The notes under the pieces were generated by a model, which was not told the DNA's origin, did not search any database, and saw only the letters and a list, made by a program, of their open reading frames with translations. The translations under genes were made by a program, and so were the position numbers. A stretch of DNA of 64,000 nt, from assembly GCA_030390025.1 (NCBI GenBank), contig JASTWF010000324.1, forward strand, positions 434,001-498,000, given 5' to 3'. The number at the start of each line of letters is the position of its first letter. Within the stretch, counting starts at the first letter, position 1. Positions 3,801 to 24,358 of the stretch are shown piece by piece. The DNA comes from Squalus acanthias (lineage: Eukaryota).

Positions 3801-4083
3801 TGGGACAGTGTAGAGGGAGCTTTACTCTGTATCTAACCTGTGCTGTACCTGCCCTGGGAGTGTTTGATGGGACAGTGTAGAGGGAGCTTTACTCTGTATC
3901 TAACCCGTGCTGTTCCTGCCCTGGGAGTGTTTGATGGGACAGTGTAGAGGGAGCTTTACTCTGTATCTAACCCGTGCTGTACCTGTCCTGGGAGTGTTTG
4001 ATGGGACAGTGTGGAGGGAGCTTTACTTTGTATCTAATCCGTGCTGTACCTGCCCTGGGAGTGTTTGATGGGACAGTGTAGAG
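836..4083 (+). repeat. 67-bp tandem satellite, about 48 units
   Basis: Unit GGGAGTGTTTGATGGGACAGTGTAGAGGGAGCTTTACTCTGTATCTAACCCGTGCTGTACCTGCCCT; period 67 (842 to 909). Confidence 0.97.
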
Positions 4084-5742
4084 TGTAGAATTCGCAATTA
4101 TCACGATTTGATTAATAAGGAGAAAACACAAAGTTTCGTTCAAACAGCTTTTATTTCAGCGGAATGCTGTCAGGTTTAAATTGGACACAAGCAGCCTGTA
4201 AAATGGCCGCCGCACCTCGTGACAGAACATTCTAGACTTTTCAACAGGCAGACAAGATGGCGTTCCAATAAACATTTTTGCAGGATCGATAACGATTCAG
4301 CACAGTGAAGACAATACACAGGACATTATGGGTTTACAGTATAAACATCGATACTGGAATCGGTCTCCCAGGTACAAAGGAAAGCCATTAAGGGCCCATC
4401 CAAAGGACATTAATATGTAAACTCCCAACGGCTCTACGATGAGAGAGCCGTTAGCAGGTAGTTATACAGGACACTTGGAAGCCCCAAACCCCTCCAGGGG
4501 GAACACCGACCGATTTAACAATGGGAGAAATATTAGCAGGTACTCAAACATTCATGAGTAGCCCCGAAACCCATTAAGGACGGAGATCACCCATACAGGA
4601 CATTTTGGGCGCCAAACCTTAAACAAAAGAATGGACATTGTAGTTGGGCGGGAAACGGAAGAACTGTGCACTATAATTGCAGGCCCAAACCGTCCATTCG
4701 CTCTCTTGCTCTTGACTCTTGCCTCGTGTTCTTGACTCTTGCCGCTTGCTGCTGTTATCATCGTGGCTGCTCCTGTGTTTTATCCGGTCGATTCGTAACC
4801 TCGTGGCTGCTCCTGTGTAAAAGACTGTTGAACTTTCTGATCCGTTCGGATCTACCTCGTGTCGCGTAAAGAAGACCTATGTTGGTAGCTGGCAGCGGAA
4901 CCAAAGGCCCGAGATGAGATGAGATGAGATGAGAGGAGAAGAGAAGAAGACCTTATCCATCGCCACGGTCAGTAAATCCCGACCGCGCCTGTAGGTCGAT
5001 CAGCCAAGTCTTCTTGACAGGAAGTTTTCTTCTTTAACAAGACATATTGCATCGATGATAACTGGACTGTGCAAACACATCGTATCAGTGATATTGACAA
5101 CGGTGCTCCACCATACCTTGTACCAACCAACAGAGGTCTTCACTACAGCGGACGGTCCAGCCGACTGACCGAGCAGCAGAAGCAGTAAACAAGTGGGACC
5201 AGGAGATCTCCTGACCAACACGTGGGTGCTGCGGTGAAAAACATCCGATCAGCTATTCGGGATTTCTCCGAGTTATTACGAGTGGTGAGCATGAGTCTCG
5301 AGATCCTACGAAGCTAGTTTAGGATAGATATTGATAGGGGAGGGTTTAAAGATTAAGGATATTTGTAATGTGTGCCCTATTTACGTTGTGCCGTTCGTTC
5401 CTCGTTTCCCTAAGAGTGATTATAACCGTTTGTAAGATTGTACTGTCATTAATCTGTGCATATGACATGTATTTCATAATTTTAAGTATCATGCAATAAA
5501 GATTTTCCATTTCGTACCGTTCAAACCAAGTCTACATGAGTTTTATCTCCATTACTGCTCTCGCATCTAAGTCCAGTGTCTAGAACCGTAAGGGAGAGTG
5601 ATTCGAACCACTCACAGGGGTGTCTAGTGTTCCCAGACTGGCTGGAGACCAGGCCTAGACCCGCACTGACATACAGGCTGCACAGAGCCGCGTGAATCTC
5701 ACAGGCTACGAGACACGCAGGGTCAGGAGAGAATCCCTTACA
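4084..5742 (+). repeat. 5' LTR of provirus 1 (1659 bp)
   Basis: Begins TGTAGAATTCGC, ends CCCTTACA; near-identical to 15149-16806. Confidence 0.97.
4600..4680 (+). promoter_or_regulatory. Putative LTR core promoter: two E2F-like sites and TATA-like TATAAT (4672-4677)
   Basis: GCGCCAAA 4609-4616, GCGGGAAA 4648-4655 and GCACTATAA are all retained in the diverged LTR of provirus 2. Confidence 0.5.
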
Positions 5743-5746
5743 GAAA

Positions 5747-7558
5747 ATGGCGACCGCGGCAGGACGCTGGCAGCGAGAGGGTAATGTGTTAGACTTTGGA
5801 ATGACTGTACGAAATGTTATGCAGGAAAAGATAGCGGATTATGTGTTTGGAAAGGTTAATCTAACTAAGAAATGGATAAGTGAATTGTTAGCGGATAAGA
5901 GCCCACTAGAGGCAGCTGAAAGGTGGACTGATAGTAAGGAGCATAAAAAGGCAGTTGAGAAAGCAGTCTGGCTTATGTGCTACAAAAGGCAGGTTCAGAT
6001 TTCAAACCAGACCATTACAGCGCTAACAGCTCGTATCAGCCATTTAGAGGGAGAAATGGAGGAGAAGGTTTCTGGAGGGGAGGTGCTCATTAAGAATTTA
6101 AATGAGTTACGCCAGGAAAGCCAGGAAGTCTCCAGTTACCTTAAAACAAGGGTAGAGTATCTCGAGTGCCAGGTCACTGAAGCAAAATTGAACGAGAGTA
6201 GGATGAAAGAAAGATGTAACCGCCAAGCTGCCCAGATAAGAACTCAAGAAGAGAGCTTAATGGGGGTTAGGTCGGCGTATAAGTTGGCCCTTGAGGATAA
6301 GTTTCAGGGAGCCGACCATAGCGCCTGCCAAAAAGAGATAGAGAGCCTCAAAAAGGCCGTGAATAATGCGAACGGCATGGTGTGCCTTATTAATCCGTCG
6401 GCACGCCAGCCGCTAGTAAATGAGAGATTTAGAAATTCCCCACCATGTAAAGCGGAAGAAGTAGTAGCCACTGCGCCCTCCGCGCCACCCAGCTATTCAG
6501 AAACCTGGGTTAGGGAGGAAGCAACGGAAGAAGCAAAAGAGCCCGTTGAAAAGGAGGTAGAAAAGGGATCGTTGTATCCAGTAACGGGTATTAAAAGGGG
6601 CCCAAGCAGAAACGGTGGGGAAGAACCGGGGGATCTCCTCGGACAGCTGGTGTTGCCTCACAGTTCACATCAGCTGAGGGCCATGATAAACCACGTAAGG
6701 AAGCTGACCGAGATAGACGACCCTTCCGTACATTTCAGGGAAGTTGAGCAAGCCGCAGCCATTAACGGCTGCGATGATGGGGAGACAGCAAAAATGCTGC
6801 TGTTCTCGTTAGATAGCTCGGTCCTTCAGTGTCTCTCAGGCGATAGCAAGAGGGGTAACAAAAGTTATGAGGAATTGAAAAATGAGGTCCTAGAAGTAGT
6901 GGGAGCGAACGACGGAGGTCCGTTTGCTAGAGTGGGACAGACAGTGCAGATGGAGGGAGAACCCCCGAAGGTTTTTGCCGACAGGCTGTGGCCAGTATAT
7001 GAGCGCAGCTGTCTAGGTGCGCCCGAGCGCGAAGATGTGGAAGGCGCCGCTTTAATTCATTGGCTTAGGTGCATAATAGCCAACAGTTTACCAGCCGTTA
7101 GAGAGCAGGCAAAAGCCTGGTTCGATCCCAATGACCTCAACCTTACGGAAGAGTCGGTCTTGAATCGACTTACGTTAGGTTACCGTAACATAAGGGGTAT
7201 GACGACACGTCCCTTTAAGGGAAGAGTACATGAGGTACGACCCGCAGCCCCGACTCAAAGAGAGTGGCATCAGGAGGGTAATCGCGCCCCACAGGCAAGT
7301 AATGCCTGTTACGGGTGTGGGAAGACAGGGCACTGGCGCAAGCACTGCAGGAACCCTTGGAAGGATTCCAAGGATAAAAATCCCGCGGTCCGAGCCCAGA
7401 CGCCTGTCCCGCCTAAGGAAGCAAAGGCACCCACCTCTCCCGAAGACCTCGAAGCAGTGTTAGGAGTCATGCGCAAGATGGTTTTGAACGCGCGTGGACA
7501 GGTGGCGGTCGCAACCGGCCCCGTAGGTGCCGCAGGACCGTCTAATAGTGCCCCATGA
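5747..7558 (+). CDS. gag: Gag polyprotein, 603 aa
   Basis: Position after PBS; N-terminal coiled-coil region; CCHC knuckle CYGCGKTGHWRKHC (~7307-7348); PSAP and PPSY late-domain-like motifs. Confidence 0.93.
   Translation: MATAAGRWQREGNVLDFGMTVRNVMQEKIADYVFGKVNLTKKWISELLADKSPLEAAERWTDSKEHKKAVEKAVWLMCYKRQVQISNQTITALTARISHLEGEMEEKVSGGEVLIKNLNELRQESQEVSSYLKTRVEYLECQVTEAKLNESRMKERCNRQAAQIRTQEESLMGVRSAYKLALEDKFQGADHSACQKEIESLKKAVNNANGMVCLINPSARQPLVNERFRNSPPCKAEEVVATAPSAPPSYSETWVREEATEEAKEPVEKEVEKGSLYPVTGIKRGPSRNGGEEPGDLLGQLVLPHSSHQLRAMINHVRKLTEIDDPSVHFREVEQAAAINGCDDGETAKMLLFSLDSSVLQCLSGDSKRGNKSYEELKNEVLEVVGANDGGPFARVGQTVQMEGEPPKVFADRLWPVYERSCLGAPEREDVEGAALIHWLRCIIANSLPAVREQAKAWFDPNDLNLTEESVLNRLTLGYRNIRGMTTRPFKGRVHEVRPAAPTQREWHQEGNRAPQASNACYGCGKTGHWRKHCRNPWKDSKDKNPAVRAQTPVPPKEAKAPTSPEDLEAVLGVMRKMVLNARGQVAVATGPVGAAGPSNSAP
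5748..5765 (+). promoter_or_regulatory. Primer binding site, tRNA-Arg(UCG)
   Basis: TGGCGACCGCGGCAGGAC is the reverse complement of GTCCTGCCGCGGTCG+CCA, recalled as a vertebrate tRNA-Arg(UCG) 3' end; 5 nt after the LTR. Confidence 0.85.
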
Positions 7559-10500
7559 CTAGAACCAGCACAGCCCGTCTACCTGTGTCCGCTCAGCTAT
7601 GATGCGTGGAGGCGACCTGTGGTGGAGATGGAGGTAGAGAAACAAAAGGGCAGTTATTTGTTGGACACGGGAGCTTCTTGCACCATAATCCATACAGATG
7701 ACCCTTTTGACTCGCCGCTATCTACCAAGGTCCCATTCACGCTAGCAGGGTTCACAGGGAAAGAACAGGCTGGCACGTTTTCCCTCCCGCTATCCATTCG
7801 TTTAGGAACACTTCGCCTTAAGTGGAAGTGTATACTGATGGCATGGCAAAAGGGGGGTGGAAGAGGTATTCTCGGGTCCGATCTGCTAGCGGGACACGGG
7901 ATCCTCGTGGACCTCAGAAATCACTGTCTCTGGGGGGCTAAAGGTGAAAAAGGCGAGGTAATGGTGATTCAAGGGGAGGAAGAAACAGGGGTCCTGTGTA
8001 CCGTACAGCCATCCGGAGGCTACGACCTCAGGCTTATGGTCGCAGATGTCCCAACGGACATGCAAACGTACGTGACAGATAATATGCACGCGTTTGCAAC
8101 CCACAAGCACGATTGTGGGAGGGTGGTCGGGTTTGAGGTCAGCGTAGATGGGGACCCCATGACCCGACCCCAAAAGCAGTATAACTTCCCCAAAGAAGCA
8201 GAACCCGATATGGAGGCAGCAATGTCTTCCTTGGTGCAGCAGGGCGTGTTGAGGCCGATAGCCACACACGTGAACTCCCCATTATGGCCGGTTAGGAAGC
8301 CGGATAATTCGTGGAGAGCCACGGTGGACTACAGAGTCCTTAACAGTAACATTCCCGCCTGCGCGCCCACAGTAGCAGCAGTTGCTGACCTAATAGGGAG
8401 CATCCCAGCGTCCGCGACCACGTTCACGGTGCTGGATATCTCGAACGGTTTTTGGTCCATCCCGCTGCGGCGAGAGGACCAGTACAAGTTTGCCTTTACG
8501 TTTAAAGGGCAACAGTACACGTGGAACTGTTTGCCACAGGGTTTCCACAATAGCCCCAGTATTTTTCACCAGTGTATGGCAGGAAGTTTAAAGGAGTTTA
8601 GTCAGCCCAATCAGATAGTACAGTATGTGGATGATTTGCTCCTATTTACGGACTCAAGGGAGGAGCACGGACCACTACTGGACGAGTTATTGGAGCTGTT
8701 AGCGAGAAAGGGTTTTAAAGTAAACCCAAAGAAAGCACGTATCGGTCAGCAGGAAGTAAAATTCCTGGGACTGACCCTACGCGCTGGGGAAAGAGCCATA
8801 GACAAAGCAAGGAGGGAGTCGGTGCAAGAATTACCGATTCCCAACAACGTAAGGGGTGTGAGGTCCTTCTTGGGACTGACCGGTTACTGCAGGGATTTTA
8901 TCGAGGATTATGCGGCCACAGCGGCGCCGCTCCTCCGACTCCTCCATAAGGGGGTAGAGTGGCTTTGGGACGAGGGCTGCCAAGCAGCCTTCGAGAAGTT
9001 AAAAAGGGATCTGCAGACCGCGCCAGCCTTAGGGGCCATAGATGGGGGGAAGGAGTTTTTCCTGGAGGTAGCTGCCAGCGGAGACAGCTTAAGCGCCGTG
9101 CTGCTCCAAGAGCGTCACGGCAAGCTGAGGCCGGTTGTCTATTCATCCAGGGTATTAACGGATGTGGAGAGAAGTTTCTCCAATTGCGAAAGGCACCTTT
9201 TAGCCACGCATTGGGCTGTGAAAAGATCAGCGATCTTCACAGGGCTCTCTCCCATCACTCTCCTCACACATCACACACCAACTAAGATGCTTCTGGATGG
9301 GAGGATTAAAGACGGGACCGTAAGCAGCGCACGCATTGCGCGTTGGACCCTTCTTCTCTCCCAGTTGGATCTTAGAGTAAAAGGTCTTTGCGAGCCCAGG
9401 CTTGCGGCCAATTTGGTATACCCCGGTACAGCCCACCGGTGTTCGGTGGAAGGGGTGTGGGACGTCAACATAGGTTTACGGGCCGGGATACATCCCACTG
9501 GGCGCGAGATTTATGTTGATGGGTCTAGCACAGTGTCTGCTGGCGAGCGACTCACAGGGTGTGGAGTTTATGACCCTGCGGCAGACCTTGCCCTGGCGAT
9601 CAAGCTCCCTAGCACCATGAGCGCGCAGCAAGCTGAGCTGTCTGCCGTGGTGTACGTGGTAACCCACCCAGACATTTTCCCAACCCCATACACGATTTGC
9701 TCGGACAGTATGTTCACCTGCAATTCGTGTACGGAATACCTGGCCATTTGGTCCCGCCGTGGATACACCTCCGCGGACGGGCGACCTTTAACGGTGAAGC
9801 CCTTGCTGGAAAAGATCTTAGCAGCAGCAGTAGGGGAGGAAGGGGAGATTTTCATCCATAAGGTGAAAGCTCACTCCTCCACAGAGCCCCGTGGGGAGGG
9901 CAACCGGCAGGCGGATGCGCTAGCCAGGGAGGGTGCCCGCGACGGTACTTTCTGGAACCCCTATAGAACCGGACCCATAGCAGCGGTCCGAGGTGGGGAC
10001 GGGAATACCGGGAACACCAGGGTAGCATTGCCCCTAGACCTTAAGACCGTCCAAGCCCAGGATCCCGCCCTAAAAGCAGTCCTAAAAACGATTGCTGAGG
10101 GGAGGCAGGTAGAAGGTCCGTACAGTACGGCAACCCTCTCAGTTAAGGAAGGCATGCTGTTCCGCGAGGAGCAGTGGGTTGTGCCGCAGCAGCACAGGAG
10201 GGAATTCCTCCAGTTGGCTCACGAGGGACCAGGGGCAGGGCACCCCGGGCCCGAGGTTACCTGGCAACGGGTAGAGCAAGCGGGATGGTGGCCAGGGCTC
10301 AGGGAACAAGTCCGCGAGTTCTGTGCAAACTGTCTTGTGTGCGCTGCAAACAACCCAGACCCCCAGAAAAGGAAGGTGCCCATGGGACACGTAAGAAGGG
10401 TAGAGGGACCATGGCAGTCGATACAGATCGACTATATAGGACCCCTGCCCACCACCCAGGGAGGTTATAAGTACTGCCTCGTCCTGGTGGATGTGTTTTC

Positions 10501-12106
10501 CAAGTGGGTGGAAGCCTTCCCTTGTCGAACAGCTACGGCACTGGGTACAGCAAAAATCTTGGTCCGGGAAGTGTTCTCGCGGTGGGGACTCCCCCGTTTC
10601 GTGGAGTCAGACCAAGGGAGTCATTTCACCGGCCAGGTGATGCAGAACACCCTCATGCTTTTGGGCATTGAAGGGAAGTGGCACGTAGCACACAATCCCC
10701 AGTCATCCGGGATTGTTGAGCGTATGAACCGGACCCTGAAGGAGAAATTGAGGAAAGAGACTAGGAACTCGCCCCAAAAATGGGCGGAAGTTCTGCCTTT
10801 AGTCCTCATGGGGGTCCGGGCCAGTCAGTCAAAAAGTACGGGGTACTCCCCGCACGAGGTAATGACCGGCAGGCTCATGCGAACCCCCACCCATGTGCTA
10901 GCCCCGGTGCTCACTGAGGGTCAGCTTCAAGAGATCAGCAGGGACAAGTTCGCCCAAACTCTCTTGGAGCGCCTGAAGCAAGTTTATGAGCAGGCGGCTG
11001 GGAACATGGGAAGGCAGCATCAGGGCAATCGCTTGTTGCTGGAACCCCGCAAAACGCGGGAGTGGGAAGTAGGAGACCAGGTCATGGTCAGAAACTACGC
11101 CAGAGTAGGGAGTCTGGAACCACTGTATATGGGACCCTACAACATTGTAGACAAGGCAAGTCCCATGGTTTACGCCGTAAAAGTACCTCGGCGCACTAAG
11201 TGGTTCCACATAAACCAATGTAAACTGTACCAGCCGGGTGCGCAAGGGAAAACTACAGGGGTAAATCCCGCCAATGGGAAAACACAGCCCCAGGTAGGAC
11301 CACAAGGCACACAGGCAGGCGTAGCAGCTTGCATCAGGGGAAGGGACATCCCGGACGATCATGCAGCGTTTTTCTGGAGTTGGGGGTTAGATGACGAGGA
11401 CCCCAGGGTACCCTGGTCAGATGAGGATAGTGCAGATGAGCATAGTGATGATGACGGGTGGTTCCTGAGGAACGGTCTGGGAGGATTGGGGCCGATAGGT
11501 AGAGATCCATACGGGGTGGACACACAAGCTGCAGGTCCCGACAACAGGAGGGAGGAGCTAGAGGAGGCCGGGCCAGCCGCTATGTGGTTCCCAGAGGTGT
11601 GGCCGCCCGCTTTGAACGTCCAGTCCTCAGGGGAGGCAGAGTTCACGAGTGAAGGGCCGCCTGCTGGGCCGAGCAGGGCGGGGCCACGAACTGCCAGCCC
11701 CGAGGTTAGGGAGGCGGAGTCAGCGGAGGCGGAGCTGGCGACTGTGATGGAACCCCAGGTCATCCCGTTGGAGGTCTCGGAACCCGGTCCGTCCGTCACG
11801 GAGCCCCCGCCCATAGCAACTCCCCGTAGGTCAAGCAGAGTACCCCAGCCCAGGAGGATGTGGTCAGGTCCACAGACTGCCCCAAGGCGTAAGTTTCAGG
11901 TTAAGATAACCCGGGTAGAGACAGGCCACATCGCAGCAGTAACAGGCTGCGGCAGATCAGAGGAAAGGGTCAGCGCAGCAACAGGCTGCGGCAGATCAGA
12001 GGGAAGGGTCAGTGCCCTCCCACCGTCGGGAAGAGCTCGCAGCAGCCTTCTCAGATTTAAAGGGGCCGCCCTGAGAACGGGCGGCACTGTAAAGTTATTA
12101 GTTTAA
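7559..12106 (+). CDS. pol: Pol (protease, RT, degenerate tether RNase H, RNase H, integrase, long C-terminal tail), in frame with gag
   Basis: LLDTGAS (~7664); LPQGFHNSP and YVDD (8624-8635); IYVDGS..AELSA..SDS..GNRQAD RNase H; HHCC, D-D-E and GPY integrase motifs; no stop from 7559 to the end. Confidence 0.96.
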   Translation, partial: LEPAQPVYLCPLSYDAWRRPVVEMEVEKQKGSYLLDTGASCTIIHTDDPFDSPLSTKVPFTLAGFTGKEQAGTFSLPLSIRLGTLRLKWKCILMAWQKGGGRGILGSDLLAGHGILVDLRNHCLWGAKGEKGEVMVIQGEEETGVLCTVQPSGGYDLRLMVADVPTDMQTYVTDNMHAFATHKHDCGRVVGFEVSVDGDPMTRPQKQYNFPKEAEPDMEAAMSSLVQQGVLRPIATHVNSPLWPVRKPDNSWRATVDYRVLNSNIPACAPTVAAVADLIGSIPASATTFTVLDISNGFWSIPLRREDQYKFAFTFKGQQYTWNCLPQGFHNSPSIFHQCMAGSLKEFSQPNQIVQYVDDLLLFTDSREEHGPLLDELLELLARKGFKVNPKKARIGQQEVKFLGLTLRAGERAIDKARRESVQELPIPNNVRGVRSFLGLTGYCRDFIEDYAATAAPLLRLLHKGVEWLWDEGCQAAFEKLKRDLQTAPALGAIDGGKEFFLEVAASGDSLSAVLLQERHGKLRPVVYSSRVLTDVERSFSNCERHLLATHWAVKRSAIFTGLSPITLLTHHTPTKMLLDGRIKDGTVSSARIARWTLLLSQLDLRVKGLCEPRLAANLVYPGTAHRCSVEGVWDVNIGLRAGIHPTGREIYVDGSSTVSAGERLTGCGVYDPAADLALAIKLPSTMSAQQAELSAVVYVVTHPDIFPTPYTICSDSMFTCNSCTEYLAIWSRRGYTSADGRPLTVKPLLEKILAAAVGEEGEIFIHKVKAHSSTEPRGEGNRQADALAREGARDGTFWNPYRTGPIAAVRGGDGNTGNTRVALPLDLKTVQAQDPALKAVLKTIAEGRQVEGPYSTATLSVKEGMLFREEQWVVPQQHRREFLQLAHEGPGAGHPGPEVTWQRVEQAGWWPGLREQVREFCANCLVCAANNPDPQKRKVPMGHVRRVEGPWQSIQIDYIGPLPTTQGGYKYCLVLVDVFSKWVEAFPCRTATALGTAKILVREVFSRWGLPRFVESDQGSHFTGQVMQNTLMLLGIEGKWHVAHNPQSSGIVERMNRTLKEKLRKETRNSPQKWAEVLPLVLMGVRASQSKSTGYSPHEVMTGRLMRTPTHVLAPVLTEGQLQEISRDKFAQTLLERLKQVYEQAAGNMGRQHQGNRLLLEPRKTREWEVGDQVMVRNYARVGSLEPLYMGPYNIVDKASPMVYAVKVPRRTKWFHINQCKLYQPGAQGKTTGVNPANGKTQPQVGPQGTQAGVAACIRGRDIPDDHAAFFWSWGLDDEDPRVPWSDEDSADEHSDDDGWFLRNGLGGLGPIGRDPYGVDTQAAGPDNRREELEEAGPAAMWFPEVWPPALNVQSSGEAEFTSEGPPAGPSRAGPRTASPEVREAESAEAELATVMEPQVIPLEVSEPGPSVTEPPPIATPRRSSRVPQPRRMWSGPQTAPRRKFQVKITRVETGHIAAVTGCGRSEERVSAATGCGRSEGRVSALPPSGRARSSLLRFKGAALRTGGTVKLLV

Positions 12107-12350
12107 GGTTTTAAGTTTATAGTTCAAGGTTAAGTTTTAAGTTTATAGTTCAAGGTTAAGTTTTAAGTTTTAATAAGGTTAAGTTTGTAGTGTTTTTAAC
12201 AGATAACGATAAAATGATGGGAGTTTTAAGGCTAGGTTTAGAGGAAGTCTATTCAGCAAACGTTGAAGTTTACGTGAGGCGAGGTCAGGGGACCCGCTCA
12301 CCCTTCACAAAAGCCAGAGACTTTTTGCGAGGCTGGCTACCTCATTCTAT

Positions 12351-12361
12351 CTGATCACAGG
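12351..12361 (+). promoter_or_regulatory. Putative env splice acceptor (...TTCTATCTGATCACAG/G)
   Basis: CAG/G 13 nt upstream of the env ATG; identical in provirus 2. Confidence 0.5.
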
Positions 12362-12373
12362 AACCAAGGAAGG

Positions 12374-14725
12374 ATGGAACGACTTATAGTATTGCTCGTG
12401 GCAATCGGATGTGGATTGGCCTATCGAGGCCACACCAAGGATGTCGTGGTGTTTGGATGTTCCGGGGACACGGCCCCCATCGCGGTGGATGGGACCGGAA
12501 GACGGAAGGCAGAGGGGACCAGCACCTATTTCCACAAGGGAAGGTGGCCAGGATGGCTGGGAACGAACTCAACGGAGTATTCCAGCACATCGGGGTTCGC
12601 CTACAAAGAGACTTCTTTAATGTGCCCCAAAGTACGGATCATCGCACCCAGGATCAGCGTCACCGTCGGCAAACGGATTTGTTTGACCTGCAGTGGGGAT
12701 GTCCCATTGAGCCGATGGTGGTGGCTGCGAAAGCTGAGCAAAACTATGAGGAACTCTTCGGTTGAGTGGGAGCGACTGGGTAATAATACCCATCGGACAA
12801 TTACGGGGACAGATGGACAAGTGAAAGTCTGTTGGGACAAATGGTGGGAACCGGATGAGGGGATTTATGTTTGTATGTGGGGGTCAAAGTACGTTTGCCC
12901 CAAAGGCATCTCCATATTCTTTATTAACCAGTGGCAGGATAACGGACAGGGGATGAGGTGGGATGCGAGCACCAGGGGGTGCGGAGCCCCATACTCTCCG
13001 ATCCCAGTAAATGCCACTGAGCTCATTACGCGCCCACGCAAAGCCCCGCCCACGATTCCGGTAGTTCTAACTGAGGAAGAAGGGTGCCCTAAAACTAGTA
13101 AGGGACCCGGGAACGGTTTGGTACTGGTCCCCACAGACCAGATACTATTTCAGGGGGTACATTACGCGGTGGCCTCGGTGATTTTAAATCTCACTGAGGT
13201 ACGGTTACCAGAGTGGTGCCCCAAAAAGACGGAACAGTTGTACCAGGTCCTGTTGACCAAGATGTTCAGGCAATTTTACGAGTTTGATTTTGCAGAAATT
13301 GATAAGACAAGTTTGTACACCGCACCGCAGGAAGTTTTGGATCAAGTAGGGAGGCAAAGAAGGGGTTTGGTGAACGATGCGTTCACTGCTTTTAACACAG
13401 GGACATCTGTGGTCAACGCTCTAGACAGTGTGGAGCTGCAGACCCAGATTAATGGTTTAAAAACACAGTTAAAAGACATTCTAACAGATGAGAATAAAGT
13501 GGTAGGGTCGGGTCTGCACGAGGACCAAGCCATGACTCTCCATTTAAAGGAAATCATAGCAGAGCTGGAGAAACATGCGCGTACGGTAAATGCCCTGATT
13601 AGGGAAGATCGGAATGCATCCGATCAGGCTGCGCAGAACGAGGTGTGCGTGCTTTACGGGGCGTGGTTACTGGGCGAGGGCCGCAGTAATTTGGAGGATT
13701 TAAAACAAGGTTTGGTTCCGTCCTGGATAAGTAACAAACACCTGCGGGCGCTCCACCCTTTTCAGAACGCATTAAGTCCGTGCCAGCTCAGGCTAGCTTC
13801 AGAAGCTTACCCAGTCCCCGTGGACTGCGGACGTTCAAACCATACTATTATGGGAATAGTATTACGCATGCCGGTTTTGGGCAACACAGCAAAGCCCGCC
13901 CCGGTGTATCGGGTAGAGAACATTGGTGTCATTCAGGGGGGAGCCCACATTCGTTATGCAGCGGTTCCACCTTACGTCATCCGCTGGGAGCAAACGATGA
14001 CAGGTACAGATCTCTCTGGTTGTCGTGGCAGGGGAGCACACATAATACTGTGCCCCCAGCACTTGAATGCCTTTTTAACACCACAGTGCGGGTTCAGAAC
14101 GGCTGGCGCCAAGTCCATGAATTGCACCATGGAGGCAATGGCCCAAGATCATGTGCCTCCGCAGGTAGCATACATCGGGGGTGGAACATATTGTGTTACC
14201 ACTGCAGCGCAACACTACCAGCATGGAAACCGTAGCCGGTGTCCGGTGAGTGACAGCAGTTTCTGTTTTAAACCCAGGGCTGAAGTTCAAGTAGCACAAC
14301 AGCGAATTATCCCAATCCCTGAACCATCCACTGTTCATCTCACAGTAAAAGAGAATTTCACCGACTTGCAGCGATTTGTCGCGCATTTTGGATACCTCAT
14401 TCCCCCTCTCCCTGAGCATTTAACCAAACTTCTGAAAGCCGTCGCGGTGTCACAAAAGCATTTTTATACCTTAGAGCAGAAAACTGTCGAGATAGGTACA
14501 GACATTTTGGACATAGTGGTTCCACCGTGGTGGAATCTGTTCACGAATATTGAAGTGCCCTCATGGGTCAGAATAGCCTCCCACATTTTAGTCGTCTGTC
14601 AAGTGTTTATTGTAGTATACCTATTGTTCATACATTGTAAAAGAGACAAGCGCCTCACCAAGCATGAGAACACGGGAGAGTGGCGAGAACGTTACGTGCG
14701 CGTGCACGACGAGAGCGCAGTGTAA
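12374..14725 (+). CDS. env: Envelope glycoprotein, 783 aa, class I fusion-type
   Basis: Signal peptide MERLIVLLVAIGCGLA; furin site RQRR (~13352-13363) followed by fusion-peptide/heptad region; Cys-rich ectodomain; N-glycosylation sequons; TM helix near C-terminus. Confidence 0.93.
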   Translation: MERLIVLLVAIGCGLAYRGHTKDVVVFGCSGDTAPIAVDGTGRRKAEGTSTYFHKGRWPGWLGTNSTEYSSTSGFAYKETSLMCPKVRIIAPRISVTVGKRICLTCSGDVPLSRWWWLRKLSKTMRNSSVEWERLGNNTHRTITGTDGQVKVCWDKWWEPDEGIYVCMWGSKYVCPKGISIFFINQWQDNGQGMRWDASTRGCGAPYSPIPVNATELITRPRKAPPTIPVVLTEEEGCPKTSKGPGNGLVLVPTDQILFQGVHYAVASVILNLTEVRLPEWCPKKTEQLYQVLLTKMFRQFYEFDFAEIDKTSLYTAPQEVLDQVGRQRRGLVNDAFTAFNTGTSVVNALDSVELQTQINGLKTQLKDILTDENKVVGSGLHEDQAMTLHLKEIIAELEKHARTVNALIREDRNASDQAAQNEVCVLYGAWLLGEGRSNLEDLKQGLVPSWISNKHLRALHPFQNALSPCQLRLASEAYPVPVDCGRSNHTIMGIVLRMPVLGNTAKPAPVYRVENIGVIQGGAHIRYAAVPPYVIRWEQTMTGTDLSGCRGRGAHIILCPQHLNAFLTPQCGFRTAGAKSMNCTMEAMAQDHVPPQVAYIGGGTYCVTTAAQHYQHGNRSRCPVSDSSFCFKPRAEVQVAQQRIIPIPEPSTVHLTVKENFTDLQRFVAHFGYLIPPLPEHLTKLLKAVAVSQKHFYTLEQKTVEIGTDILDIVVPPWWNLFTNIEVPSWVRIASHILVVCQVFIVVYLLFIHCKRDKRLTKHENTGEWRERYVRVHDESAV

Positions 14726-15136
14726 TGGGAAAATGGCGTCACTCCCGCTCGCCACGTGCGCCGCGGAAGTTTGTACTCATTGTAAATACGTTGGAAACTC
14801 GACATGTTTAAGAGTTGGGATTTGTTTATTTTGGTGATGGTGTTGATTGTTTGGTTTTTGGGTTTTGTTTTTCCTTTCCCTGAATAAAAGACAAATATAC
14901 AGGTGATGCGTGAGGTATCGGCCTGGTTACGCCGGGAAGGAAAACAAGTGGTGTAAGTTTAAGGGCAAATGATGCCTATGGTGATATAAAATGTGATTTT
15001 CTTGGGAAATAAGGACGACACAGAGACCCTAGTTAAGTTAAAATTTATGGGATTAATTTACTGGATTCGGAGTGAAATCGAGATAAGATTGCTCACCACT
15101 GAGATTTTTGATACGATAAGCGGAGTTATTCGCATC

Positions 15137-15148
15137 AACAGGAGGGAC
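15137..15148 (+). promoter_or_regulatory. Polypurine tract (short)
   Basis: AACAGGAGGGAC immediately before the 3' LTR TG. Confidence 0.7.
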
Positions 15149-16806
15149 TGTAGAATTCGCAATTATCGCGATTTGATTAATAAGGAGAAAACACAAAGTT
15201 TCGTTCAAACAGCTTTTATTTCAGCGGAATGCTGTCAGGTTTAAATTGGACACAAGCAGCCTGTAAAATGGCCGCCGCACCTCGTGACAGAACATTCTAG
15301 ACTTTTCAACAGGCAGACAAGATGGCGTTCCAATAAACATTTTTGCAGGATCGATAACGATTCAGCACAGTGAAGACAATACACAGGACATTATGGGTTT
15401 ACAGTATAAACATCGATACTGGAATCGGTCTCCCAGGTACAAAGGAAAGCCATTAAGGGCCCATCCAAAGGACATTAATATGTAAACTCCCAACGGCTCT
15501 ACGATGAGAGAGCCGTTAGCAGGTAGTTATACAGGACACTTGGAAGCCCCAAACCCCTCCAGGGGGAACACCGACCGATTTAACAATGGGAGAAATATTA
15601 GCAGGTACTCAAACATTCATGAGTAGCCCCGAAACCCATTAAGGACGGAGATCACCCATACAGGACATTTTGGGCGCCAAACCTTAAACAAAAGAATGGA
15701 CATTGTAGTTGGGCGGGAAACGGAAGAACTGTGCACTATAATTGCAGGCCCAAACCGTCCATTCGCTCTCTTGCTCTTGACTCTTGCCTCGTGTTCTTGA
15801 CTCTTGCCGCTTGCTGCTGTTATCATCGTGGCTGCTCCTGTGTTTTATCCGGTCGATTCGTAACCTCGTGGCTGCTCCTGTGTAAAAGACTGTTGAACTT
15901 TCTGATCCGTTCGGATCTACCTCGTGTCGCGTAAAGAAGACCTATGTTGGTAGCTGGCAGCGGAACCAAAGGCCCGAGATGAGATGAGATGAGATGAGAG
16001 GAGAAGAGAAGAAGACCTTATCCATCGCCACGGTCAGTAAATCCCGACCGCGCCTGTAGGTCGATCAGCCAAGTCTTCTTGACAGGAAGTTTTCTTCTTT
16101 AACAAGATATTGCATCGATGATAACTGGACTGTGCAAACACATCGTATCAGTGATATTGACAACGGTGCTCCACCATACCTTGTAGCCAACCAACAGAGG
16201 TCTTCACTACAGCGGACGGTCCAGCCGACTGACCGAGCAGCAGAAGCAGTAAACAAGTGGGACCAGGAGATCTCCTGACCAACACGTGGGTGCTGCGGTG
16301 AAAAACATCCGATCAGCTATTCGGGATTTCTCCGAGTTATTACGAGTGGTGAGCATGAGTCTCGAGATCCTACGAAGCTAGTTTAGGATAGATATTGATA
16401 GGGGAGGGTTTAAAGATTAAGGATATTTGTAATGTGTGCCCTATTTACGTTGTGCCGTTCGTTCCTCGTTTCCCTAAGAGTGATTATAACCGTTTGTAAG
16501 ATTGTACTGTCATTAATCTGTGCATATGACATGTGTTTCATAATTTTAAGTATCATGCAATAAAGATTTTCCATTTCGTACCGTTCAAACCAAGTCTACA
16601 TGAGTTTTATCTCCATTACTGCTCTCGCATCTAAGTCCAGTGTCTAGAACCGTAAGGGAGAGTGATTCGAACCACTCACAGGGGTGTCTAGTGTTCCCAG
16701 ACTGGCTGGAGACCAGGCCTAGACCCGCACTGACATACAGGCTGCACAGAGCCGCGTGAATCTCACAGGCTACGAGACACGCAGGGTCAGGAGAGAATCC
16801 CTTACA
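15149..16806 (+). repeat. 3' LTR of provirus 1 (1658 bp)
   Basis: Direct repeat of 4084-5742. Confidence 0.97.
16559..16564 (+). terminator. Putative poly(A) signal AATAAA in the 3' LTR (5' copy at 5495-5500)
   Basis: Conserved in the provirus 2 LTR (TTTATT at 21981-21986). Confidence 0.65.
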
Positions 16807-16850
16807 AGAGGGAGCTTTACTCTGTATCTAACCCGTGCTGTATCTAACCC
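16807..16850 (+). repeat. 44-bp remnant of the 67-bp satellite between the two proviruses
   Basis: AGAGGGAGCTTTACTCTGTATCTAACCCGTGCTG plus a duplicated TATCTAACCC. Confidence 0.9.
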
Positions 16851-18579
16851 GATCTTGTGCCATTGCCTCCATGTTGCAATTCATGGGCTTGGCGCCAGCC
16901 GTTCTGAACCCGCACTGTGGTGATAAAAAGGCATTCAAGTGCTGGGGACACAGGATTATGTGTGCTCCCCTGCCACGACAACCAGAGAGATCTGTACCTG
17001 TCATCGTTTGCTCCCAGCGGATGACGTAAGGTGGAACCGTTGCATAGCGAATGTGGGCTCCCCCCTGAATGACACCAATGTTCTCTACCCGATACACCGG
17101 GGCGGGCTTTGCTGTGTCGCCCAAAACCGGCATACGTAAAACTACACCCATAATGGTATGATTTGACTGTCCGCAGTCCACGGGGATTGGGTATGCTTCT
17201 GAAGCTAGCTTGAGCTGGCACGGGCTTAATGCGTTCTGAAAAGGGTGGAGCGCCTGCAGATGTTTGTTACTTATCCAGGACGGGACCAAACCTTGTTTTA
17301 AATCCTCCAAATTACTGCGGCCCTCGCACAGTAACCACGCCCCGTAAAGCACGCACACCTCATTCTGCGCAGCTTGATCGGATGCATTCCGATCTTCCCT
17401 AATCAGGGCATTTACCGTTCTCGCATGCTTCTCCAGCTCTGCTATAATTTCCTTTAAGTGTAGCGTCATGGCCTGGTCCTCATGTAACCCAGACCCAACC
17501 ACCTTATTTTCATCTGTGAGAATGTTCTTCAATTGTGTTTTTAAGCCATTAATCTGGGTCTGCAGCTCCACGCTGTCTAGAGCGTTGACCACAGATGTAC
17601 CTGTGTTGAAAGCTGTGAACATGTCGTTCACAACATCCCTTCTTTGTCTCCCCACCTGACCCAAAACTTCATGTGGTGCGGTGTGCAAACTTGTTTTATC
17701 AATTTCCGCGAAATCGAACTCATAAAATTGCCTAAACATCTTGGTCAACAGGACCTGATATAACTGTTCCGTCTCTTTGGGGCACCACTCCGGCAACCGC
17801 ACCTCGGTGAGGTTTAAAATCACCGAGGCCACCGCATAATGTACCCCCTGAAATAGTATCTGGTCTGTAGGGACCAGTACCAAACCATTCCCGGGTCCCT
17901 TCCTGGTTTTTGGGCACCCTTCTTCCTTAGCTAGAACCACCGGAATTGTGGGCGGGGCCTTGCGTGGGCGCGTAATGAGTTCAGTGGCGTTTACTGGGAT
18001 TGGAGAGTATGGGGCCCCGCACCCCCTGGTGCTTGCATCCCACCTCATCCCTTTCCCATTATCCTGCCACTGATTGATGAAAAATATGGAGATGCCTTTG
18101 GGGCAAATGTGCTTTGACCCCCACATACATACATAGATTTCCTCATCCGGTTCCCACCATTTGTCCCAACAGACTCTCAATTGTCCGTTAGTCCCCGTAA
18201 TTGTCCGATGCGTATTATTACCCAGTCGCTCCCACTCGACCGAAGAGTTCCTCATGTTTTTGCTCAGCTTTCGTAGCCACCACCATCGGCTCAATGGCAC
18301 TCTGGGTGCGATGATCCTCACTTTGGGGCACATTAAAGAAGTCTCTTTGTAGGCAAATCCCGATGTACAGGAATATTCAGTTGAATTCGTTCCCAGCCAT
18401 CCTGGCCACCTTCCTTTGTGGAAATAAGTGGCGGTCTCCTCAGCCTCTCGCCTTCCGGTCCCATCCACCGCGATGGGGGCCGTGTCCCCGGAGCATCCAA
18501 ACACCACGACATCCTTTGTGCGGCCTCGATAGGCCAGTCCACATCCGATTGCCGCGAGCACTACCAGAATCCGTTCCAT
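16828..18579 (-). pseudogene. env: Truncated env (583 aa from the homologous Met); lacks TM and has a 16-aa in-frame deletion
   Basis: Near-identical protein to 12374-14725 up to MAQD, then runs into satellite and stops. Confidence 0.9.
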
Positions 18580-18855: not shown

Positions 18856-19959
18856 TCAAATTCTGTGAAGGCGGCCACAAGCTTTTCCCAACGGTGGGGG
18901 GGCACTGACCCCTTCCTTTGATCTGCCGCAGCTTGTCGCTGCTGCGCTGGGACTGGGATCTCCCTGGGCTGCCTTAGCCTTGAACCTACGCCTTGGGACA
19001 CTCTGGGGGCTTACCCACATCTTCCTGGGCTGGGGTGTCCGACTTGACCTACGGGGAACTACCGGGGGCAGGAACTCCAGGACCGACGGACCGGGTTTCG
19101 AGACTTCCACCGTGGCGACCTGTGGTCCCACCACAGTCGCTGGCTCCGCCTCCCCTGACTCCGCCTCCCTGAACTCGGGATCTGCAGCCTTTGGCACCGC
19201 CCTACTTGGCCCAGTAGGCGGCCCTTCACTCGCAATCCCTACCTCCCTCGAGGGCAAGACTTCCAAGGCGGACGGACTGGGTTCTGAGGCTTCCATTGCC
19301 ACGTCCTGTGGTCCCACCACAGCCGCTGGCCCCGCCTCCCCTAGCTCCGCCCCCCTGATCTCGGGACCTGCAGCTTCTGTCTCCACCCTGTGTGGATCTC
19401 CATCTGCAGTCCCTATCTACCCTATACCTGAATCGGGGGCGACCCTTTCGTCCTCCGATTCCAGCTCCTCTTCGCTTGTGTCACTATCTTGGTCGAGCTC
19501 CTCGAACTCTTCCTCATCTGACTCCCAACCCCAATAAAGGATCCTGCATTTCGCCAGGATGTCCTCTCCCCTGATGCAAGCTGCTTTGCCTGCCTGTGTG
19601 TCCTGTGGCCCTACCCGGGGCTGCGAGTCCCCACTCGCAGGTTTGGCCCCTGTGGTTGGCCCTTGCGCACCCGGCTTATACAGTTTGCACTGATTTAAAT
19701 CCCTGCTTCTGGCTACCCTGTAGGCTGCTTTTATCTCTCTAAGCTGCCCTTCTAGCCCGTCTACTTTCCCCATTAAGTGGGCGTTCTCCTCCCGCAGGGC
19801 CTGCTCTCTAAGCTGCCCTTCCAGCTCGTCTACTTTCCCTATTAAGCGGGCGTTCTCCTCCTGCAAGGCCTGCTCTTTCAACCTGGCCTCCTTACAGGAG
19901 ACCCCCTCCTGTGCGCGTCTTTCTAGGGGACACAGGTAGGCGGGCTGTGCCGGTTCCAG
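18856..19959 (-). pseudogene. pol: pol remnant: 12 N-terminal codons, foreign coiled-coil insert, post-integrase tail; one in-frame TAG at 19417-19419
   Basis: LEPAQPAYLCPL and NQCKLYKPGAQG...PRRSSR match provirus 1; PR/RT/RH/IN absent. Confidence 0.85.
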
Positions 19960-21759
19960 TCAGAAGTCCGGGTTGCATGGGGCTGTTGCTACCTTCCCGT
20001 GCAAAATCATGAGAGACCGCATGGCTCCTAACATTGATTCGATCGCATCGGGATGGATAGGTGCACCAGCTCCCCTATCAGAGACAGGCGCCTGGGCTCG
20101 GACTGCGGGATTTTTATCCCTGGACTCCTTCCAAGGGTTCCTGCAGTTCTTGCGCCAGTGCCCTGTTTTTCCGCATCCGAAACAAGCATTACTGGCCTGT
20201 GGGACGCGATTTCCCTCCTGATGCCACTCCTTTTGAGCCGGGGCTGTGGGCCGCGCCTCATGCACCTTACCCTTAAGGGGACGTGCTCCCGCACTCCTGG
20301 TATTACGGTACCCTACCGTGAGTCGATTTAGGACCGACTCCTCTGTTGTGGCGGGGTTAATGGGATCAAACCACGTTTTGGCCTGCTCCCTCACGGCTGG
20401 TAAGCTGTTGGCTACTATACATCTGAGCCAGTGAGCTAAACCAACGGCGTCTAAATCAACGCGCTCGGGCGCGCCTGGGCAACTACGCTGATAGACAGGC
20501 CACAGCCTGTCGGCGGAAACCTTCGGGGGTTCTCCCTCCATCTGCATAGTCTGTCCCAATCTAACGAACGGACCTTCGTCGTCCGCCCCCAACACTTCCA
20601 GGACCTCATCTCTTAACTCCTCATAGGTCCTATTACCCCTTTTGCTCACGTCTGAGAGACACTGGAGGATCGAGCTGTCTAAAGAGAACAGCAGCATTTT
20701 TGCCCTTTCCCCATCGTCGCAGCCGTTAATGGCTGCGGTCTGCTCTACCTCCCTGAAATGTACGGAAGGGTCGTCTGACTCGGACAGCTTCCGTACGTGG
20801 CTAATCATAGCCCTCAGCTGGTGTGCGCTGTGAGGCAACACAAGCTGGTTGAGGAGATTCCCCTCTTCCCCATTGTCTCCCTCCGGGCCCCTCTTGATAC
20901 CCGTAAGTGGGCACAACGCTCCCGGCTTCACCACTACTTTAGGGGGCTGTCCTACCTCGGGGACCTCTTCCTCTACTTCTACCACTTCCTTCCTTACCCA
21001 GGTTGCCGAATAGCTGGGTGGCGCGGAGGGCACAGTGGCAAATACCTCCTCTGCTTTGTTCGGTGGGGATTTCTGAAATTCCCCACCCACCGGCGGCTGG
21101 TGTGCTGACGGGCTGATAAGGCACACCATGCCGTGCGCTTTGTTCAGGGCCTCTTTAAGGTTCCCTATCTCTCTTTGGCAGACGCTGTGATCGGCCCCCT
21201 CATGTTTATCCTCGAGGGCCATCTTATATGCCGCCCTAACCCCCTTTAAGCTCTCTTCCTGGGCTTTTATTTGAGCAGCTAGGCGGGCACATCGCTCCCT
21301 TATTCTGCCCTCATTTAATTTTGCCTCAGTGACCTGGCACTCGAGGTAATCTATTTTCGCCTTATGGTGGTTGGCGACTAACTGGCGTTCTTGATGCAAC
21401 GCATTTAAAGACGCGATGAGCTGCTGCCCCCCTGCGACCTTCTCGTCCATTTCCACCTCTAAACCCTTGATCTGAGCTGCCTGCGCTATGATGACCTGGT
21501 CCGAAAGCTGGACTTGCCTTTTATAACACATCAGCCAGACCGCTTTCTCTACAGATTTTTTATGTTCCTTGCTGCCTGTCCACCTCACGGCTGCCTCTAG
21601 TGGACGCTTATCCACCAGCAGGTCACTTATCCATCTCTTAGTCAAATTCACTTTTCCAAAAACATAATCGGCTATTCTCTCTTCCATAACATTTCGCCCA
21701 TTCATACCAGGGTCTAACACATTATTTTCTCGCTGCCAGTGTCCCTTCGTGGTCGCCAT
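19960..21759 (-). CDS. gag: Gag polyprotein, 599 aa, open
   Basis: Collinear homolog of 5747-7558; CFGCGKTGHWRKNC knuckle. Confidence 0.92.
   Translation of the reverse strand: MATTKGHWQRENNVLDPGMNGRNVMEERIADYVFGKVNLTKRWISDLLVDKRPLEAAVRWTGSKEHKKSVEKAVWLMCYKRQVQLSDQVIIAQAAQIKGLEVEMDEKVAGGQQLIASLNALHQERQLVANHHKAKIDYLECQVTEAKLNEGRIRERCARLAAQIKAQEESLKGVRAAYKMALEDKHEGADHSVCQREIGNLKEALNKAHGMVCLISPSAHQPPVGGEFQKSPPNKAEEVFATVPSAPPSYSATWVRKEVVEVEEEVPEVGQPPKVVVKPGALCPLTGIKRGPEGDNGEEGNLLNQLVLPHSAHQLRAMISHVRKLSESDDPSVHFREVEQTAAINGCDDGERAKMLLFSLDSSILQCLSDVSKRGNRTYEELRDEVLEVLGADDEGPFVRLGQTMQMEGEPPKVSADRLWPVYQRSCPGAPERVDLDAVGLAHWLRCIVANSLPAVREQAKTWFDPINPATTEESVLNRLTVGYRNTRSAGARPLKGKVHEARPTAPAQKEWHQEGNRVPQASNACFGCGKTGHWRKNCRNPWKESRDKNPAVRAQAPVSDRGAGAPIHPDAIESMLGAMRSLMILHGKVATAPCNPDF
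21741..21758 (-). promoter_or_regulatory. Primer binding site, second tRNA-Arg(UCG) isodecoder
   Basis: + strand GTCCCTTCGTGGTCGCCA, recalled as another vertebrate tRNA-Arg(UCG) 3' end plus CCA. Confidence 0.85.
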
Positions 21760-21763
21760 TATC

Positions 21764-23394
21764 TGTAAGGGGTTTCGGGTGGCTCTGTGCTTAGCCTGGG
21801 TGCTAGTGCGGGGTTAGGCCTTGTTGCCTGTTCTGGTCTCCAGCCAGCCTGGTAACACTAGACACCTGTGAGTGGTTCGACCCACTTGCCCTTACGGTTC
21901 TGACACTGGACTTAGGTGCGAGAGCAATAATGCAGAGAAAACTCAGGTAGACCCGGTTGAATAGTGCGAAATGGAAAATCTTTATTGCATATTATTCAAG
22001 ACTACGAAATACATGTCATAAGCACAGATTAATGACAGTACAAACTTATATACATTTATGCAACTAGGTTTAGGGAAACGAGGAGCGCACGACACATCGT
22101 AAAAGGGGACACACATTATAATTATCCTTAAAACTTAAACCCTCCCCTATCAATACCTGTCCTAATCTAGATTTGTAGGATCGAGACTCATGCTCACCAC
22201 TCGTGATAACTCGGAGAATTCCGAAACTCTGCTCGGATGTTTTTACCGCAGCACCTGACTATCCACGTGTTGATCAGGGGTCTCTGTACCCCACTTGTTT
22301 GCTCGCTTCTGCTCCGGCTAGCAGGCTGGACTGTCTGCTGTCATGAAGATCTGTGTTGTCCTCGGAACTCTGACAAAACTCAAAGAAGAGTCTTCCTATG
22401 CCCGGCACCCGTTAGCCGGTAAAATTCAAAGAAGAGTCTTTTCGGACCAACACCAGTTGTGGAGTAGCCGATAGAATTCGAAGAAATGGTCCTTATATTT
22501 AGAGGCGCAGTCGGGGTTTACTGACCGTGGCGATACGTATTGTCGTCTTCTTCTCTTCTCATCTCATCTCATCTCATCTCCTCTCGGGCCTTCGGTTCCA
22601 ACACCGTTTACCGACTTCTCGGGATGGTGCGCCCACTTCCAGGTCTTCGCAGCCCAGTTCTCCACAGATCTTCGCGGCAAGCCACGAGGTTGATCCTGGC
22701 GGATCAGAGTCCAGAGTCGTCAGGCAGTTCAGCAGCCTTCCAGCGAGTCAAAGCAGCAAGAGAGAGATGGGCGGTTGTACTTTACAGTTATAGTGCTGTA
22801 ATTCCTATTTTCCCGCCCAATCTTAATGTCTATCTTTTGTCATGTTTTGGCGCTCAAAACTTCTTGTATGGGGTGATCTCAGTCTTTAATGGGTTACGGT
22901 GATACTTGTAACTGTCTGAGTACCCGTTAATATTTCTCCCATTGTGGAACCGGTTAGTAGTCTCCCTGGAGGGGTTTTGGGGCTTCCAAATGCTTGCTGT
23001 GAGTACCCGCGAACGGCTCTCTCATCGTAGAGCCGTGGGGAATTTGCATATCAATGTCTTTGGATGGGTCCTTGATCGCTCAGTACAATAGCCCTCGTTT
23101 GTACCTGGAAAACCGATTCCAGTATTTATGTTTGAAATGCAAACCCATCGCGTCTTGTCATTATCTCAAATGTGCTGAGTCCTGTCCGATCTTGCTGAAA
23201 TGTTTATTGAAACGCCATCTTGTCTGCCTACTGAAAGTCTAGAACATTCTGCCACGAGGCGTGGCGGCCATTTTACAGGCTGTTTGTGTCCGTTTTGAAA
23301 CCTGACAGCATTCTGCTGAAATAAAGCTGTTTGTACGAAACTTTTTGTCTCCTTCTCATTATTATAAAATCGCGATAATTTTGCGAATTCTACA
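21764..23394 (-). repeat. 5' LTR of provirus 2 (1631 bp)
   Basis: Minus strand begins TGTAGAATTCGC and ends CCTTACA; diverged homolog of the provirus 1 LTR. Confidence 0.93.
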
Positions 23395-24101
23395 GCTGTA
23401 CCTGCCCTGGGAGTGTTTGATGGGACAGTGTAGAGGGAGCTTTATTCTGTATCTAATCCGTGCTGTACCGCCCTGCGAGTGTTTGATGGGACAGTGTAGA
23501 GGGAGCTTTACTCTGTAACTAATCCGTGCTGTACCTGCCCTGGGAGTGTTTGATGGGACAGTGTAGAGGGAGTTTTACTCTGTAACTAATCCGTGCTGTA
23601 CCTGCCCTGGGAGTGTTTGATGGGACAGTGTAGAGGGAGCTTTACTCTGTATCTAACCCGTGCTGTACCTGCCCTGGGAGTGTTTGATGGGACAGTGTAG
23701 AGGGAGCTTTTCTCTGTATCTAATCCGTGCTGTACCTGCCCTGGGAGTGTTTGATGGGACAGTGTAGAGGGAGCTTTACTCTGTATCTAACCCATGCTGT
23801 ACCTGCCCTGTGAGTGTTTGATGGGACAGTGTAGAGGGAGATTTACTCTGTATCTAACCCGTGCTGTACCTGCCTTGGGAGTATTTGATGGGACAGTGTA
23901 GAGGGAGCTTTACTCTGTATCTAATCCGTGCTGTACCTGCCCTGGGAGTGTTTGATGGGACAATGTTGAGGGAGCTTTACTCTGTATCTAACCCGTGCTG
24001 TACCTGCCCTGGGAGTGTTTGATGGGACAGTGTAGATTGAGCTTTACTCTGTATCTAATCCGTGCTGTACCTGCCCTGGGAGTGTTTGATGGGACAGTGT
24101 A
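23395..24101 (+). repeat. 67-bp satellite, continuation of the array
   Basis: Same unit as 836-4083. Confidence 0.96.
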
Positions 24102-24358
24102 TAGAGAGAGCAACTATCAGAGAGAGAGAGACAATGTGTGAGAGAGAGAGGGAGTGTGAAAACAGAGAGAAACCGAAAAGGTGACCAATAGAGAAGGGGT
24201 ATAAAGGAGCAGAATTGATACAGAGGCAGAGAGAAGGAGGGATATAGTAAATAGGAGATTGGGAGTGAGAGAGGGAGTGACAGCAAGAGGGTTCATCAAA
24301 GGACGAGCGAGGGACAGATGAGAGGAGCAGAGAAAAAGAGAGAAGTGCGAGACAGGTT

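Follow-up and report, generated by a model that had tools for sequence, protein, structure and literature searches.

Pol-less retroviral elements are common and are usually viewed as deletion products. Mouse IAP 1-delta-1 is non-autonomous and very successful and keeps its ORF across a large pol deletion; in the portion of the source available, gag and pol are fused directly in this element and the fusion protein is reported to act in cis (PMC6466679). The zebrafish Bhikhari elements, Bik-1 and Bik-2, are non-autonomous relatives of the lokiretroviruses that lack pol, have been recently active, encode a Gag with an N-terminal coiled coil and need the enzymes of a partner; they carry a single gag ORF and no env, and the available part of their account describes no cassette behind the stop codon (bioRxiv 10.1101/2024.03.25.586437). 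Lokiretroviruses have gag, pol and env between LTRs and a tether plus RNase H, their Env has class I fusion protein features, and their nearest Pol proteins are named NYNRIN-like; the main text reports none from cartilaginous fishes, and the extra coiled-coil gene, 'smc', is a separate ORF in the sections available (PMC7947760). MLV-type readthrough retroviruses hold gag and pol in one frame with a stop between them, a UAG followed by a pseudoknot (PMC4917968, available portion), and UGA followed by CUAG is a readthrough-prone consensus (bioRxiv 10.1101/2021.04.18.440353, available portion).

The locus described here lies in a stretch of 64,000 nucleotides (the window) and adds loki-like elements in a probable cartilaginous fish. 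The window contains two related proviruses arranged tail to tail (Table 1), of which provirus 1 bears pol and provirus 2 belongs to a pol-less family, termed here the cassette family, whose pol slot holds a captured, selected and exchangeable module behind an intact readthrough stop. Like IAP 1-delta-1, this family is non-autonomous, successful and open across the pol deletion; unlike it, the family retains a whole gag with its leaky stop (some stop codon is kept in 39 of 40 copies picked by position), uses foreign gag as a filler that is common to two families, and keeps env. By these comparisons the cassette family appears to work most like IAP 1-delta-1, from which it departs in having no stop-free fusion. 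It resembles Bhikhari in the lack of pol, recent activity, Gag coiled coil and need for partner enzymes, but is not of the Bhikhari type because env is kept. Its single gag and pol frame with a stop between recalls the MLV type, but the signal is UGA + CUAG and no enzymes follow the stop. The literature covered, with subscription papers, repeat databases and the lokiretrovirus supplement mostly outside its scope, yielded no account of this family or of a gag cassette replacing pol.

Table 1. Features of the two proviruses in the window.
Feature	Position	Strand	Remarks
Provirus 1	4084..16806	+	pol-bearing helper-family member; gag, TGA-CTAG, pol, env
Provirus 1 pol	7559-12106	+	
Provirus 2 5' LTR (TG...CA)	21764..23394	-	adjoins 67-bp satellite; 78-86% like provirus 1 LTR, three blocks
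Primer-binding site	21740..21758	-	shares bases with first in-frame gag ATG (21759); placed alike in full-length copies
gag, open	19960..21759	-	78% identical in DNA to gag of provirus 1
gag stop TGA with context CTGG	19956..19962	-	TGA at 19962-19960
First 12 pol codons, LEPAQPAYLCPL	19924..19959	-	homologous to provirus 1 pol start; YLC-P motif
Cassette piece 1	19891..19923	-	from upstream part of donor gag helix
Cassette piece 2	19696..19890	-	distal end of donor Gag coiled coil; 23-codon unit doubled
Doubled 23-codon units	19876-19808 and 19807-19739	-	inside cassette piece 2
Integrase end and acidic, proline-rich pol tail	18856..19695	-	73-83% like provirus 1 tail; NQCKLY from 19695
env	16851..18579	-	48-base in-frame deletion vs provirus 1; cut at about 16850

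The LTRs of provirus 1 are 99.6% alike and the target duplication is AGAG; its gag, pol and env frames are open, with gag and pol sharing one frame across TGA-CTAG. Pol carries protease, RT, tether, RNase H and integrase domains. Four of the six best matches of the RT-RNase H region are named NYNRIN-like, and the best solved relatives of the RT are those of MLV and then of foamy virus. Env had no match among Pfam and PDB sequences, and its language-model neighbours are the Baculo_F, Gypsy env and Fusion_gly clusters at 0.93-0.95. Judged from this domain layout, the parent pol-bearing family appears to be loki-like. The Gag of provirus 2 is composed of an N-terminal head, a long predicted helix, a second helix, capsid and a zinc knuckle, and the long helix is predicted as a single one at residues 48-163 of the modelled part. 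A Pfam search of Gag and Env gave nothing at E 0.001, and a fold search with the Gag N-terminal model gave no match at E 0.001. A short N-terminal peptide of Gag is conserved among distant relatives, and in both proviruses the primer-binding site shares bases with the first in-frame gag ATG (5748-5770; 21740-21759). At least three more loki-like gag families occur in the genome (L081-L110), 37-50% identical to the window Gag and all with TGA-CTAG.

Provirus 2 extends on the minus strand from 23394 to about 16850 and has one LTR. It is without a 3' LTR, its env ending where the 67-bp satellite resumes, and its primer-binding site is one that we take to be of the tRNA-Arg type. Behind its gag stop the frame runs for 180 codons before a premature stop (19417-19419) closes it, unlike most other cassette copies, in which the frame of the pol tail is open. 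Provirus 2 is one broken copy of its family. A twin 61 kb away (99.5%) has the stop and the env cut in common with it and lies beside the satellite without an adjoining provirus 1; the neighbourhood of provirus 1 is therefore incidental, and provirus 1 is ruled out as the specific helper. The earlier note had suggested a helper-dependent satellite of provirus 1: the dependence stands with the whole pol-bearing family as the partner, and the tie to provirus 1, whose gag is only 78% alike, does not. The 67-bp satellite surrounds both proviruses (836-4083, 16807-16850, 23395-24108) and, among 30 other fetched elements, was found near the twin only, so it is not generally targeted. The pol tail of provirus 2 also contains a 186-base internal repeat, about 79% alike (19064-19388), and a conserved basic motif, RRSS-R, near the end of the tail is a putative nuclear or chromatin tether.

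The replacement of pol in frame, as first proposed from the window, was borne out: 3,618 bases of provirus 1 (7595-11212) are without a counterpart in provirus 2, which has 228 bases of foreign sequence (19923-19696) between the 12 pol codons and NQCKLY, its two pieces divided by a 30-base in-frame deletion. The tandem duplication of 69 bp is likewise real (19739-19807 / 19808-19876, 63 of 69 bases alike), but it is not a fixed trait of the family, since 7 of 40 position-picked copies have one unit and 33 have two. That the insert derives from Gag also held, through the finding of a donor, while the 37-residue alignment to provirus 1 Gag put forward for it is weak by itself. When the second unit plus its tail served as the query, an equally good score against provirus 1 Gag was reached in 74 of 2000 shuffles and, among shuffles that preserve the heptads, in 227 of 2000; against the own Gag of provirus 2, the counts were 1 and 0 of 2000. 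A longer form of the cassette found elsewhere in the genome, which takes in the next helix of Gag and reaches the beginning of capsid, is plainly Gag, its score being equalled by 0 of 2000 shuffles.

Capture from the gag of a third family had been suspected, and a donor family of gag-pol-env elements was found in the genome. A pattern of the long cassette form continuing as ordinary Gag had 81 matches (control 0), the first 30 of which comprised 18 donor-type gags, nine members of a second pol-less family and three unclassified. Donor gag is 86-93% identical in DNA to the long form over about 210 bases and 77-89% identical to the second unit plus tail of provirus 2, which supplies the gag homolog whose lack would have spoken against the capture. 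The five donor elements fetched have the gag-pol-env order and are all broken or frameshifted. Closer gag families were excluded as donors, being only about 50% identical to the cassette. A donor-family element (L157) has a 3' LTR of the provirus 2 type and a largely deleted pol, and may be a nested insertion or a cross-family recombinant.

In the second pol-less family, Gag shares 45-50% identity with that of the cassette family, there is a single coil unit, the tail differs, and one of 10 copies has env. The cassette of this second family is built of donor pieces of 32 and 226 bases across the 30-base deletion, the 32-base piece being 81-88% alike between donor and second family, and adds a capsid-start piece that is only 72-76% like the donor and perhaps comes from another family. 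The synonymous distance of the long form in the cassette family is 0.07 to the second family and 0.19 to the donor, and the last gag codons of provirus 2 resemble those of the second family, not those of provirus 1. These comparisons suggest that the cassette probably reached the cassette family through the second pol-less family and not directly from the donor. On this history, whose order comes from an unrooted comparison, the segment would have moved from donor gag to the second family and then, together with the last gag codons, to the cassette family, where it would have been duplicated, shortened and repeatedly joined anew to the tails of helpers. In a database protein from another source (P0024), a piece of the Gag coil is attached to an Env-like N-terminus, a hint that this segment of Gag has been relocated independently.

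The junction was examined for uniqueness to the locus and is no one-off repair product: the exact left-junction pattern has 1,166 matches in the genome, and the provirus 1-type protease start has 1,418 (reversed-pattern control 0 for each). A DNA search spanning both junctions returned 40 of 40 scored matches (3,207 candidates), 39 of which cover at least 447 of 451 bases. Twenty whole copies were fetched, chosen from a protein search; in all 20 the pol slot is without an RT or integrase core and env sequence stands behind the cassette, with a full-length env frame in six. Two LTRs, 97.5-99.9% alike, bound 12 of the 20, and an exact 4-base target duplication is present in seven of the 10 copies checked. 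The cassette family is thus a non-autonomous ERV family, LTR-bounded, with target duplications, dispersed and without an RT or integrase core, as the reading of provirus 2 as a non-autonomous gag and env element had anticipated from a single copy.

A set of 40 copies was picked by position along one chromosome, as the first 43 left-junction matches minus two tandem twins and one locus already sampled. It consists of 23 short forms (the provirus 2 type), four long, 12 middle and one joined further up in integrase. The length of the short cassette is divisible by 3 in 22 of the 23, and the post-stop frame runs for at least 300 codons in 32 of the 40; in a set of 150 copies, 107 reach at least 340 codons. 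Of 30 copies picked by DNA, one is frameshifted; the other 29, which were measurable, fall into six length classes and are in frame without exception. Exact junction patterns number 290 for the short and 155 for the long form, the latter count including other families, and several distinct right junctions recur, all in frame. The start of pol is kept as well, YLCP being present in 63 of 69 cassette copies. The gag stop is TGA in 38 of the 40 position-picked copies, with the context CTAG in 30 and CTGG in seven; pol-bearing copies have CTAG, and CTGG, the context of provirus 2, is seen solely in cassette copies and may promote readthrough less strongly.

A gag tree of 51 cassette and 12 pol-bearing copies, built without three misaligned long rows, two outgroup rows and duplicated loci, places at least six changes of the pol/cassette label on well-supported branches (shuffled mean 11). 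Several pol copies have their nearest gag neighbour among the cassette copies, at up to 98.4% identity, and gag ends and tails typical of the provirus 1 subfamily occur on cassette copies. The label changes and the shared gag ends and tails therefore indicate that pol and cassette act as alternative fillings of one slot, presumably through co-packaging. The pol-bearing family would be the helper, with matching cis signals, and its genomes would be packaged together with those of the cassette family.

Tentatively, and at close to an even chance, we favour the reading that the coil cassette is a non-enzymatic stand-in for Gag-Pol, made by readthrough and acting in cis, which favours the copying of its own RNA by helper enzymes. 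Ribosomes would read through TGA-CT(A/G)G, as they must in pol-bearing copies; since the first half of the cassette has no upstream ATG in provirus 2, readthrough is probably needed to reach it, a spliced route being the alternative. Retroviral protease and capsid begin at Pro (the Pro-at-P1' rule), and because of this rule YLC-P is probably the N-terminal cleavage site of protease, which, being kept, would let the helper protease free a coil-plus-tail protein. The coil would oligomerise the extension, replacing contacts made by Pol, and a few Gag-extension molecules would then seed assembly on the RNA that encodes them. The open tail would count mainly as translated length and, in addition, would protect the RNA against nonsense-mediated decay. 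What was captured corresponds to the distal end of the one long helix predicted in Gag; the number of units (one or two) and the downstream helix are dispensable among the position-picked copies. When the window cassette and the Gag coil (residues 95-200 of the modelled part) were predicted as a complex, the score was 0.01, which is uninformative either way. A hairpin just after the stop was rejected as a readthrough signal: it can form in most cassette copies, but its pairing is disrupted in the donor and in the other pol-bearing families, and it has no two-sided change. A Pfam match of the cassette to Rab11-FIP3 fell below the curated cut-off and was taken as a generic coiled coil.

Selection bears on these readings. 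In copies not picked by protein likeness, dN/dS of the coil is 0.44 (n=24, p 3e-5) and 0.54 (n=30, p 0.011), and jointly 0.52 (p 2e-5), with 1.16 and 2.19 in the shifted frames; the first replicate, of 27 position-picked copies, gave 0.59 for the coil (p 0.07), 0.33 for gag and 1.04 for the tail. In the early copies the values were 0.475 for the short cassette, 0.37 for the long, 0.37-0.51 for gag, 0.88 for the tails (not below 1) and 0.33 for the coil codons alone; the sets behind 0.33, 0.475 and 0.37 include copies picked by protein likeness and are biased low, and the copies not so picked are preferred. The tail amino acids behave neutrally (0.88, 0.88, 1.04). Owing to recombination among copies, tree-based estimates of dN/dS are rough. 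Shared and single alleles had synonymous to non-synonymous counts of 22:15 vs 11:21 (Fisher p 0.054) in a set with some protein-picked copies, a contrast that is gone without them (19:31 vs 20:26). Within the second pol-less family dN/dS is 1.17 and 1.27, with no purifying signal, and between it and the cassette family 0.56-0.74, with intervals that span 1. Among indels of the post-stop frame, those common to at least five copies are in frame (3 of 3) and three 1-base insertions occur in two copies each. Of the 29 shared indels in the non-coding spacer between pol and env, 24 are frameshifting. The frame is kept throughout, and amino acids are moderately kept in the coil only.

A kept frame with drifting tail amino acids could also mean that the frame is all that counts, readthrough into about 370 stop-free codons sparing the unspliced RNA nonsense-mediated decay, with the cassette as in-frame filler whose mild conservation reflects the avoidance of misfolding. 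Forms of very different content do have similar frame lengths, of about 350-400 codons, and readthrough stabilises long-3'UTR RNA in MLV reporters, according to the available text of that study (PMC4917968). We nonetheless consider this explanation unlikely, though it is the foremost rival, as dN/dS is about 0.5 in the coil and about 0.9-1.0 in the tail, every one of the 40 position-picked copies keeps at least one coil unit, 33 keeping two, and kilobases of untranslated RNA (env, LTR) remain 3' of the post-stop frame. A neutral passenger is improbable: the cassette would owe its presence to one template-switch origin, the shorter genome would have spread for other reasons, and the frames would be intact through youth and the refreshing of tails and gag ends by helpers. 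The young LTR pairs, the tails and gag ends common to pol-bearing copies and several non-significant selection tests agree with it, but the coil, at about 35-38% amino-acid identity to the helpers of the cassette family, is not refreshable from them and still has a dN/dS near 0.5 with shifted frames above 1, and the share of junctions and spread indels that keep the frame far exceeds one in three. Interference, in which the coil, once freed, attaches to the Gag coil of a helper or competitor family and disturbs assembly there, either as a defective-interfering genome or as a host-kept restriction factor, agrees with the origin of the cassette in the distal end of the long Gag helix, with cassette copies almost as numerous as pol-type copies and with the five frameshifted donor copies of five examined, but is the least probable reading and a decidedly poor candidate, given a helper family that is still abundant and young and copies that are dispersed and decaying with no single fixed locus.

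The stand-in for Gag-Pol acting in cis thus ranks ahead of a frame kept for its own sake, of the neutral passenger and of interference, in that order. If cis action is true, the cassette would be a short and concrete element through which a retrovirus's parasite gains the use of helper enzymes, an open question for IAP 1-delta-1. More speculatively, and with rather more doubt than belief, the cassette may be a portable cheater allele of the pol slot, captured once from Gag, spread by recombination among co-packaged genomes and across families whose Gags are under 50% identical, which repeatedly makes freeloaders of pol lineages through an assembly advantage of the coil. With roughly 1,200 natural copies that vary by degrees, in unit number (one or two) and in length (three classes), the family lends itself to a population-genetic test. 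Contigs from the four sequencing runs compared, out of eight presumed to be RNA, cover the cassette, one bridging gag and cassette, and, having no silent-stretch control, are not read as expression. Contigs under two organism labels cover the cassette, and the family may span more than one species.
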